NCBI GenBank assembly: GCA_964583985.1
Contig: CAZOYD010000087.1
Coordinates: 1-12,202, forward strand
DNA from: an uncultured archaeon
GTDB taxonomy: Archaea > Asgardarchaeota > Lokiarchaeia > Sigyniarchaeales > SOKP01
Length of the DNA stretch: 12,202 bases
Direction of reading: 5' to 3'
Of this stretch, positions 5,355 through 8,634 are shown piece by piece. The position numbers and the translations under genes are program-made. How positions within the stretch are numbered: the stretch's first letter is position 1; each line of letters starts with the position of its first letter. The notes beneath the pieces were generated by a model that was not told the origin of the DNA, ran no database searches, and saw only the letters and a program-made list of their open reading frames with translations.

Positions 5355-6797
5355 TTATCGAATTTTCTTATCTTCGATTTCAATTCCTAATTCCCGCAGT
5401 TTATTCCGGATTTGATCGCTCATTTCAAATAATTTCTTTTCTCTTAGTTGATCTCTTATAGTCGTGATCAAGTCTACCAAGTTTTTAATCATGACTCCTT
5501 GTTCATCCGAACCACTACCAAGACTTAAAACTTTATTTTCCATATCGGGAAAGACGCCTAAAATAGAATCGATTTTTTCAATAAAATCCACGAACGATTT
5601 TTTAAATGACGCGTTGATTTTTTTTCCATCTTGAAGGATCACTTTATTAATCTCTCGAAATAGCGATAAGATCTCTGCGATTGCGATTGGTGTGTCGAAG
5701 TCATCATCCATGGCTTTAATTATATTTTCAAACGTACCTTCTATTTTTACAATTAGGTCATCCATGTCCTTACTTGCCGTCTTGATAATGGGACTGGTAT
5801 ATATCTTTTTAATCGTATTAAATAATCGATTATATTCTTTTTTCGACTGCTCCAAACTATTTGGTGAATAATTTATAGAACTTCGATAATGGCTCGATAT
5901 TAAATACCACCGAACCACCATCGGATCATATTGTTTTAATATATCTATTGCCAAGAAGTAATTCCCAAGGCTTTTAGACATCTTTTCATCATCTGTATTT
6001 ATGAATCCATTATGGATGAAATAATTCGAAAAGGTTTTGCCGGTATAGGATTCCGATTGCGCGATCTCATTCGGATGGTGTGGAAATTTGAGATCCTGGC
6101 CACCACCATGAATGTCAATGGTTTCTCCCAAGAGGTTAAGTACCATCACGGAGCATTCAATATGCCACCCAGGTCTTCCTTTTCCCCATGGGCTCTCCCA
6201 ATATGGTTCCCCTTCTTTCATTTTTTTCCAGAGTGCAAAATCCTTAGGATCTCGTTTATCTTCTCCAAATTGAGTATCTTGATCTGGTGCTAAATCTGCT
6301 TCATCCCCATTAGATTCGGTCTCTTTAGCTCGTCTGAAAAACGTATTGTATTTTTTATAAGTATTTACCGAAAAATACACTGAACCATTATTTTCATACG
6401 CATTCCCTTTTTTAATGAGTACTTGTATGAAATCGATAATTTTAGGTATGAATTCCGTCGCTCGAGGGTTATATGTATCCGCTTTTACGTTTAATGCACG
6501 CATTATTTCTTCATATTCAAAGATATAAGGTTCACTGAGCTCCTTGTAAGTTATATTCTTTTTATTTGCTCTCTCTATAATTTTATCATCTATGTCGGTA
6601 TAATTCTTTGCTACAAAAACTTTATATCCTTTAAATTGGAGATAACGGTGAATCAAATCAAACACTACAGCAGATTTCACATGACCGATATGCGCGGAAT
6701 CATAAACGGTGGGACCGCACACGTACATTTTAACTTCATTTGAATTGATCGATTTAAACTCTTCCTTTTCAAATGTAAGACTGTTATAGATTTTCAC
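5355..6797 (-). CDS. cysS: Cysteine--tRNA ligase (class I CysRS)
   Basis: MYVCGPTVY, AHIGH, NYTDIDDKII, DFALWK, SPWGKGRPGWHIECS, DIHGGGQDLKFPHHPNE, KMSKSLGN and C-terminal SDQIRNKLRELGIEIED. GTG start with AGGAG 11 nt upstream. Confidence 0.98.
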   Translation of the reverse strand: MKIYNSLTFEKEEFKSINSNEVKMYVCGPTVYDSAHIGHVKSAVVFDLIHRYLQFKGYKVFVAKNYTDIDDKIIERANKKNITYKELSEPYIFEYEEIMRALNVKADTYNPRATEFIPKIIDFIQVLIKKGNAYENNGSVYFSVNTYKKYNTFFRRAKETESNGDEADLAPDQDTQFGEDKRDPKDFALWKKMKEGEPYWESPWGKGRPGWHIECSVMVLNLLGETIDIHGGGQDLKFPHHPNEIAQSESYTGKTFSNYFIHNGFINTDDEKMSKSLGNYFLAIDILKQYDPMVVRWYLISSHYRSSINYSPNSLEQSKKEYNRLFNTIKKIYTSPIIKTASKDMDDLIVKIEGTFENIIKAMDDDFDTPIAIAEILSLFREINKVILQDGKKINASFKKSFVDFIEKIDSILGVFPDMENKVLSLGSGSDEQGVMIKNLVDLITTIRDQLREKKLFEMSDQIRNKLRELGIEIEDKKIR

Positions 6798-6808
6798 GAT
6801 ATTTCAAA

Positions 6809-6815
6809 CTCCTTT
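6809..6815 (-). promoter_or_regulatory. Shine-Dalgarno-like site for cysS
   Basis: The minus strand reads AAAGGAG-N11-GTG. Confidence 0.55.
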
Positions 6816-6850
6816 AAAAAACGTATGATTAATAGCACGATAAATATAAG

Positions 6851-6930
6851 AGCCAGCGATGGGATTTGCACCCATGCTGCTGAAAGCAACGGCTCTGCAG
6901 GCCGCCTCCTTACTACTCGGATACGCTGGC
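6851..6930 (-). tRNA. tRNA-Cys(GCA), atypical: long variable arm, CCA not encoded
   Basis: Minus strand GCCAGCG UA UCC GAGUAGUAA GGA G GCGGC CU-GCA-GA GCCGU UGCUUUCAGCAGC AUGGG UGCAAAU CCCAU CGCUGGC U. It has a 7-bp acceptor stem, 3-bp D stem, 5-bp anticodon stem with GCA (6898-6896) and G37, 5-bp T stem and a U73 discriminator (Cys identity). It lies immediately upstream of cysS. Confidence 0.93.
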
Positions 6931-7721: not shown

Positions 7722-8057
7722 ATGAGTGACCTAAAAACAGACTTTATAAAGTTTTTAAAAGTTTTAGCAGATCAAACGCGATTGGATATTTTAGAGTTAT
7801 TGCGATATGAAAAAAAGACTGCTTCTGAAATTCAATCGGCGTTAAGCAAATCTCAATCGACGATTTCTCAACATTTACAGACTCTATCTAATAAAAATCT
7901 AATTATTCTTGAAAAAATAGACAATGTTAATACTTATACCATCAAAGATCCCGATATTTTTAAGCTCTTTTTAGAAATTAATTATTTTGTTATGAAAATT
8001 AATCAAGAAAAACTTAAAGATCTTAGAGATTTGGATGTTATCGATACATTATTATGA
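7722..8057 (+). CDS. ArsR/SmtB family winged-helix regulator
   Basis: FLKVLADQTRLDILELL...TASEI...SQSTISQHLQTL...LI. Divergent from the Lrp gene. Confidence 0.92.
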   Translation: MSDLKTDFIKFLKVLADQTRLDILELLRYEKKTASEIQSALSKSQSTISQHLQTLSNKNLIILEKIDNVNTYTIKDPDIFKLFLEINYFVMKINQEKLKDLRDLDVIDTLL

Positions 8058-8067
8058 TCAATCCATA

Positions 8068-8634
8068 ATGATTCACGTATTTAAAAGTTCAACGATGACA
8101 GAAAAAATATCACTTGGAATAAAGAAAGTACTATTGATGGGATTAGATAACTCTGGTAAGACATCCATCGCTTTGTGTTTAATGGGAGTGAAGCACTTGT
8201 CATCTTTTTCTTCGCTAAATCCTACTAGAGGAGTTAAAATCGATAAATTCCAAGCATTGAATTCAGAATTCAGCATTTGGGATTTCGGTGGTCAAGAACA
8301 ATTTCGAGAAGGTTATTTAAATGACTTTCAAACCCATATTAAAGGAACCAAGAAATTTTTTTACGTTTTGGACATCCAAGATCGAGAGAGATACGAGGTT
8401 TCATTAGAATATTTAGGGAAAATTGTATCTCTATTAAAAAAATACAAGATAAGTATTGAATTTTCCATATTTTTACATAAATATGATCCCGATTTGGAAA
8501 TCAAAAATTCTAAATTTTATGAAAGAGAGATCAATGAGTTGATAAAGAGCATAAAAAGAATAATTCCAATCGACTTTCCTTACCAAATTTACAAGACTTC
8601 AATTTATACTGTTTTTCAGAAAACATCATTATAA
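8068..8634 (+). CDS. Small Ras-superfamily GTPase, Rag (Gtr1/RagA)/Arf-like
   Basis: G1 KKVLLMGLDNSGKTS, G2 PT, G3 IWDFGGQ, G4 FLHKYD, G5 KTSIY. The ORF-track start at 8035 overlaps the ArsR gene, so ATG 8068 or 8095 is more likely. Confidence 0.93.
   Translation: MIHVFKSSTMTEKISLGIKKVLLMGLDNSGKTSIALCLMGVKHLSSFSSLNPTRGVKIDKFQALNSEFSIWDFGGQEQFREGYLNDFQTHIKGTKKFFYVLDIQDRERYEVSLEYLGKIVSLLKKYKISIEFSIFLHKYDPDLEIKNSKFYEREINELIKSIKRIIPIDFPYQIYKTSIYTVFQKTSL

Follow-up and report, generated by a model that had tools for sequence, protein, structure and literature searches.

The window, by which we mean the whole 12,202-nt stretch of DNA analysed here, carries a tRNA-Cys(GCA) gene with a short hairpin between the anticodon and T arms, resembling the variable arm of class II tRNAs. 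This arm is a real, conserved structural variant of an otherwise ordinary tRNA-Cys, which has been recurrently gained and lost. Very probably, the gene encodes a single functional tRNA-Cys that is charged by CysRS and retains the arm in its mature form as a tolerated, dispensable addition. Archaeal tRNA-Cys bearing such an arm apparently has not been described before.

The window comprises an entire contig of a 3.8-Mb genome assembled into 138 contigs, with the completeness score of 100%. ARAGORN called a single tRNA in it, tRNA-Cys(gca), at 6850-6930 on the minus strand. The Rfam tRNA model RF00005 matched the same gene over its full length (6851-6930 on the minus strand, model positions 1-71) with 55.2 bits against the gathering score of 29; 10 extra nucleotides, located between the anticodon and T arms, were treated as inserted. 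With our own covariance model R1, the gene scored 103 bits. Its coordinates and those of its parts are given in Table 1.

Table 1. The tRNA-Cys gene of the window, its parts, and the neighbouring cysS
Feature	Position	Strand	Description	Basis
cysS, class I CysRS	5355..6797	-	480 aa, GTG start	Pfam PF01406 (tRNA-synt_1e), 1e-123; DALR_2
Spacer between tRNA-Cys gene and cysS	6798..6850	-	53 nt; T6 run at 6816-6821; GGAG before the GTG start	Sequence only
tRNA-Cys(GCA) gene	6851..6930	-	80 nt, no encoded CCA, no intron	ARAGORN, Rfam RF00005, model R1
Discriminator	6851..6851	-	U73	Sequence; identity rules from PMC2330236, PMC9976931
T loop	6864..6870	-	UGCAAAU, G at position 55 replacing the near-universal U	Sequence, relatives
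Variable region	6876..6888	-	UGCU-UUC-AGCA-GC, 13 nt	Sequence, minimum free energy fold, compensatory changes in relatives
Anticodon	6896..6898	-	GCA, followed by G37	ARAGORN, sequence, Rfam
D loop	6911..6917	-	AGUAGUA, AG replacing the usual G18-G19	Sequence; covaries with the T-loop type in relatives

According to the sequence, Rfam and RNAfold, the tRNA has a 7-bp acceptor stem, a 5-bp anticodon stem and a 5-bp T stem; the D stem is UCCG/AGGA with a G13-A22 mismatch, and the anticodon loop is CUGCAGA. The minimum free energy structure predicted by RNAfold is the cloverleaf with an additional hairpin in the variable region, where 3-4 base pairs enclose a 3-nt loop and are followed by two unpaired nucleotides before the T stem. 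Class I tRNAs have a variable loop of 4-5 nt, and the region found here is instead a covarying stem-loop of more than 10 nt, as in class II, although the G73 or A73 discriminator of the class II Ser, Leu and Sec tRNAs and a matching anticodon are absent. The arm is short for a class II tRNA. What the sequence-only reading had observed about the variable arm, a 13-nt region that forms a hairpin in an 80-nt tRNA lacking CCA, is confirmed in every detail. The cysteine identity elements GCA and U73, which it had listed as intact, are indeed read directly from the sequence, as are G15, G37, G1:C72 and A59.

The gene was also correctly placed directly upstream of cysS: the two are 53 nt apart and both are on the minus strand. 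The T6 run in the spacer may be a transcription terminator. The same arrangement of tRNA-Cys and cysS is found in relatives with a 5-nt variable loop and in those with the arm. Relatives identified via their CysRS are metagenome bins labelled Promethearchaeota or Promethearchaeia, that is, Loki-type Asgard archaea, and their cysS orthologues have 60-81% identity. Elsewhere in the window (7722-8634, plus strand), an ArsR-type HTH gene overlaps the start of a gene encoding a small GTPase of the Gtr1/RagA family, a eukaryote-like signature protein of Asgard archaea; downstream of the latter are genes for a MASE3-PAS histidine kinase and a response regulator.

We searched the genome for a second, canonical tRNA-Cys and found none with ARAGORN (with and without introns), the Rfam tRNA model, model R1, or a custom scan for any acceptor/T-arm pair within 330 nt having U73 and a YUGCAR loop. 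Model R1, built from tRNA-Cys of this group, gave one strong match, the window gene, followed by tRNA-Leu(UAG) at 40 bits. In the custom scan, the window gene was likewise the only credible tRNA, and a BLAST search of the genome with eight divergent tRNA-Cys sequences from relatives yielded no further gene. The indirect route of cysteine charging was sought in the same genome: the best match to SepRS (TIGR00470) scored 66.6 bits against the cut-off of about 380, and the best match to SepCysS (TIGR02539) scored 23.4 bits against about 365. Hence both possibilities raised by the sequence-only reading, another tRNA-Cys and a SepRS/SepCysS pair, find no counterpart above threshold in a genome scored as 100% complete. 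As the window gene is the sole tRNA-Cys and no SepRS or SepCysS exceeds its cut-off, UGY codons have to be read by this tRNA, and the adjacent CysRS is the only evident charging enzyme.

To describe the arm in relatives, we applied model R1 to 150 genomes belonging to the window's order and, for each informative genome, delimited the variable region in the best match. A tRNA-Cys could be read in 105 genomes; 54 had a long region (12-14 nt) and 51 a short one, a distribution that may be distorted by mis-binned contigs, as the relatives are all metagenome bins. Genomes with the long form belong to four genera of the window's family (g1, g12, g16, and g17) or to a second family, f4, all four genomes of which have it. 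Long-armed tRNA-Cys is thus common in the lineage, as the sequence-only reading had allowed, but it is not a documented norm: full-text literature searches retrieved no paper describing an archaeal tRNA-Cys with a long arm. A preprint of October 2026 devoted to tRNA introns in Asgard archaea includes only inserts of at least 10 nt, and tRNA-Cys goes unmentioned in it. When 399 genomes of the phylum were scanned with a pattern, no arm-bearing tRNA-Cys with the stem and T-arm context of f1 and f4 turned up outside the order, although the pattern requires a UG start and no nearby intron and so does not prove absence. The sequences of the three most tRNA-like matches outside the order were retrieved and are not tRNAs.

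The layout of the arm is constant among relatives: U, stem, loop, stem, A, N, C. Its content varies. The stem may be GCU/AGC, GCC/GGC, GGC/GCC, GC/GC or GUC/GAC, with the outer U-A pair sometimes replaced by U-G, and the loop may be UUC, UUU, AUUA, UUUC, AUUC, AUCC, or one of the GNRA tetraloops GCAA and GAAA. In an alignment of 80 sequences, the three modelled arm pairs are paired in 99% of cases and two of the three vary on both sides; the alignment was fitted to R1, which favours pairing, but the hairpin variants are also legible in the raw sequences. The covariation that the sequence-only reading had proposed to look for in Asgard homologues is therefore present. The structure of the whole tRNA-Cys in this alignment outscores every shuffled and every slid control. 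Judging from these comparisons, the arm hairpin is more than a chance fold.

The elbow of the molecule is unusual as well. Among the relatives (loci L001-L112), the G55 T loop goes together with the A18 D loop, and the UUC T loop with GG or CG at positions 18-19; all arm-bearing tRNA-Cys are of the G55 type. Other tRNAs of the window's genome have the normal UUC T loop. We also observed that the variable arms of tRNA-Leu(UAG) in two relatives, UGCUAAGUGCAUC in L113 (G141) and UGCUUAGUGCAUC in L114 (G129), share with the tRNA-Cys arm UGCUUUCAGCAUC a common UGC...GCAUC frame and the length of 13 nt. This likeness could reflect a common structural constraint or copying of the arm between tRNAs.

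The window's genus includes both genomes with the 13-nt region and genomes with a loop of 5 nt (UAUUC or UUACC). Apart from the variable region, the window tRNA-Cys differs from the short-loop tRNA-Cys of a relative of the same genus (L012) by one substitution and a 1-nt indel, both in the D loop. It is therefore a tRNA-Cys with an 8-nt insert rather than a recruited scaffold, and the suggestion that a class II tRNA had been adopted for cysteine has to be abandoned. A Ser or Leu class II scaffold is ruled out by the same match of the body to short-loop tRNA-Cys.

The state of the arm changed at least 10 times on the RpoA' tree (87 genomes) and at least four times on the CysRS tree (43 genomes). 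The genera g1 and g12 share an identical hairpin, GCUUUCAGC, and many genera have the same short loop, UAUUC. Such sharing would be better explained by lateral gene replacement or an old polymorphism than by exact deletions that recur. On the RpoA' tree, the arm-bearing genomes G108 and G115 each have an arm-less genome as sister, but their CysRS sequences cluster with one another, which suggests a possible transfer, or else mis-binning, of the tRNA-cysS cassette.

These data lead to the following scenario. An insertion of 8 nt would have converted the 5-nt variable loop into the 13-nt region with a short class II-like arm of 3-4 bp and a 3-nt loop, which probably stays in the mature tRNA-Cys. 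The GCA anticodon and U73 are the major cysteine determinants, and U73 is major for both CysRS and SepRS (PMC2330236, PMC9976931). Of the archaeal minor determinants G15, G37, and A47, the first two are present, while position 47 is ambiguous inside the 13-nt region. The tRNA would thus be charged with cysteine via GCA, U73, and G37 by the class I CysRS encoded 53 nt downstream. CysRS approaches its tRNA from the minor-groove side (PMC2330236); the variable region would then face the solvent, and for this reason the arm would be tolerated. We consider the arm to be heritable, kept paired, dispensable, and presumably near-neutral: a lineage-specific add-on, found in a part of one Loki-type order and probably gained, lost or exchanged between relatives repeatedly. 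Still, the conserved pairing, as seen in the aligned sequences, argues for some selection that a merely tolerated add-on would leave unexplained.

A role for the arm could be sought in the competition between the two cysteine-charging routes. It might serve as an antideterminant against SepRS/SepCysS, having arisen after the loss of SepRS or on one copy of a duplicated tRNA-Cys, or it might persist only where the indirect route is needless; in either case it would mark a tRNA-Cys reserved for CysRS. We regard this as improbable, though it agrees with several observations. We scored the presence of SepRS in the same 150 genomes. In family f1, the ratio of SepRS-negative to SepRS-positive genomes is 47:3 among those with the arm and 15:30 among those with the short loop. 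On the RpoA' tree, two short-loop SepRS-negative genomes (G023 and G139) are basal to two large arm-bearing clades, which fits the loss of SepRS followed by the gain of the arm. The mechanism is plausible, as SepRS approaches from the major-groove side and uses additional minor determinants (PMC2330236, PMC9976931). In family f4, all four genomes have both an arm-bearing tRNA-Cys and a match to SepRS (two full-length, two partial or split), and three of them (G026, G028, and G032) have a second, canonical tRNA-Cys with the short loop, the normal UUC T loop and G10:C25, a reported minor determinant of SepRS (PMC2330236). CysRS in this family is over the cut-off in two genomes, split across contigs in a third and represented only by a fragment in G032. 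A precedent comes from Methanosarcina mazei, where two types of tRNA-Cys coexist with the direct and indirect pathways, as in f4, and the isoacceptor preferred by SepRS differs from the one preferred by CysRS (PMC9976931). The M. mazei isoacceptors differ in core nucleotides and have no extra arm (PMC9976931), and the partitioning in f4 is hypothetical.

However, the association is strong only in the raw counts and is lost under phylogenetic control. Among 7-10 independent pairs differing in the arm on the RpoA' tree, SepRS changed in the same way in 1.6, in the opposite way in 0.9, and remained unchanged in 4.5; independent pairs on the CysRS tree do not support the association either, and the raw signal rests mainly on two large clades. 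Moreover, in G108 and G115, whose bins are only 72-74% complete, SepRS is full-length and the one tRNA-Cys detected bears the arm, and fifteen SepRS-negative genomes have kept the short loop. In its fullest form, the proposal would make the arm a natural switch that hides tRNA-Cys from the class II SepRS, from SepCysS, or from both, while leaving it a substrate of CysRS; such a switch would spread after the loss of the indirect pathway or split a duplicated pool of tRNA-Cys, as in f4, and may move between related species together with cysS. This, too, we consider doubtful. Were it true, it would provide a simple natural way to hide one tRNA from one of two competing charging enzymes, and this would matter for how the two cysteine-charging routes evolved and for designing orthogonal tRNA pairs.

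The f4 genes themselves are as follows. Two different tRNA-Cys genes are present in each of the genomes G028 (L179), G026 (L182), and G032 (L184). The arm-bearing one has the acceptor sequence GCCAGC and G55, and the canonical one has the acceptor sequence GUCGGGG, G10:C25, and the UUC T loop. Full-length SepRS occurs in G026 and G028, and a SepRS match in G032 as well; for CysRS, G028 has the full-length gene, G026 one that is split across contigs, and G032 only a fragment.

It is very unlikely that the insert is a tiny intron, cut out by the archaeal splicing endonuclease to leave a normal variable loop in the mature tRNA. Introns are indeed abundant in tRNA genes of this genome and lineage, some of them at non-canonical sites: in the genome, most tRNA genes contain them, with about 23 tRNA genes detected by standard tools, and those in tRNA-Cys genes of relatives occupy the D arm, the site after position 37, the T loop and, for two genomes, the variable loop. 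In the latter two, G149 and G070, there is a genuine insert of 29-30 nt. But the arm adds only 8-9 nt to the short alleles, whereas all clear introns in these tRNA-Cys genes are at least 20 nt long. The insert is a plain hairpin without bulges rather than a bulge-helix-bulge with two 3-nt bulges and a 4-bp helix between them, and excision of all 13 nt would leave no variable loop at all. In addition, compensatory changes preserve the stem, and several lineages have a GNRA tetraloop on top of it, as is typical of structural elements that are retained. The intron reading of the arm is thus rejected by length and shape.

The two variable-loop inserts deserve a separate mention. Located at L091:31-131 (G149) and L092:31-132 (G070), they interrupt short-loop tRNA-Cys and are most likely true introns at a non-canonical site. 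They show that the variable loop of tRNA-Cys is an insertion-prone site.

Least credible is a change of charging, in which the arm would redirect the tRNA to SerRS or LeuRS, making UGY codons partly or wholly Ser or Leu, or would form an orthogonal pair with a specialised CysRS; the odds of this are extremely low. A long arm is the main feature recognised by SerRS and, together with A73, serves archaeal LeuRS as well (PMC2330236, PMC9976931). The arm found here has the layout of the genome's own tRNA-Leu arm (one unpaired nucleotide, 3 bp, the loop, three unpaired nucleotides) and resembles the tRNA-Leu(UAG) arms of relatives. On the other hand, the discriminator used by SerRS and by the Sec pathway is G73, and that used by archaeal LeuRS is A73 (PMC2330236, PMC9976931); this tRNA has neither, and U73 should therefore block these enzymes. 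The tRNA is also the sole reader of UGY codons, and cysS itself contains only two Cys codons, both TGC, and the corresponding alignment columns hold Cys in 100% and 94% of 51 CysRS (outgroups included); given such conservation, CysRS depends on the window tRNA-Cys inserting cysteine. Serylation, which the sequence-only reading had considered conceivable, is hence unlikely.

Its other proposal, a co-evolved and possibly orthogonal tRNA/CysRS pair, is not borne out: the tRNA is the only tRNA-Cys, the synteny with cysS is the same in genomes with and without the arm, and so is the length of CysRS. Comparing 23 arm-bearing with 20 arm-less genomes, we found no indel or residue of CysRS that is fixed differently between them, and co-evolution of CysRS with the arm was rejected.

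Textbooks treat each amino acid as having one unchanging tRNA class throughout a domain of life. Class I tRNA species that have gained or lost a long variable arm include the nematode nev-tRNAs, which are extra gene copies charged with Leu, and tRNA-Tyr, whose class switch is fixed between bacteria on one side and archaea and eukaryotes on the other. The switch in tRNA-Cys differs from both in being recent, recurrent, and within one family. Here, a cellular tRNA-Cys present as a sole copy has passed between class I and a class II-like form at least 10 times within one Asgard family, with no visible change in its synthetase. The relatives thereby form a natural series for studying the origin of long variable arms and the amount of added structure that the elongation factor, the ribosome and a synthetase of class I can accommodate.

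With the canonical archaeal tRNA-Cys(GCA), a class I tRNA and a substrate of CysRS (and of SepRS where present), the window gene shares the 7/5 cloverleaf, GCA, G37, U73, G15, and G1:C72. It differs in having a 13-nt hairpin instead of the 4-5-nt loop, and the A18/G55 elbow instead of G18/U55. With the class II tRNAs (Ser, Leu, Sec, and bacterial Tyr) it shares a stem-loop of more than 10 nt between the anticodon and T arms; unlike them, it has the Cys anticodon and discriminator, an arm at the short end of the range (3-4 bp), and a body unrelated to that of tRNA-Ser or tRNA-Leu. The closest published cysteine tRNA with a long arm is the selC*-type tRNA-Cys of Desulfobacterales (Mukai et al. 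2017, PMC5389517), which also combines U73, a long variable arm and a link to the cysS family. The selC*-type is reported to be a bacterial mimic of tRNA-Sec, an extra minor species with the 8/4 acceptor/T geometry that is associated with selB*/cysS* (PMC5389517). By contrast, the tRNA described here has the 7/5 geometry and not 8/4, is the sole tRNA-Cys, and lies beside a full-length ordinary CysRS.

Finally, the gene of the RNA polymerase A' subunit, used for the tree, is itself unusual in some of these genomes. In the window's genome, it is interrupted by about 31 nt just upstream of locus L231 (contig C2 of G000, minus strand, about 24760-24790). The interruption, which brings in stop codons and a frame shift, lies between ...NCMGHFGH and IELARPVIHVGY.... 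An insert of 30 nt with stop codons is present at this site in five relatives and absent from most of the others. The fold of the region has a helix-bulge-helix shape (z = -2.9), and the insert resembles a short intron of the archaeal kind, here within a protein-coding gene. In three relatives (G003:C29, G137:C31, and G125:C88), the RpoA' frames are about 1500 aa long and the family match is split at model position ∼446-450, which would fit an intein in this subunit.
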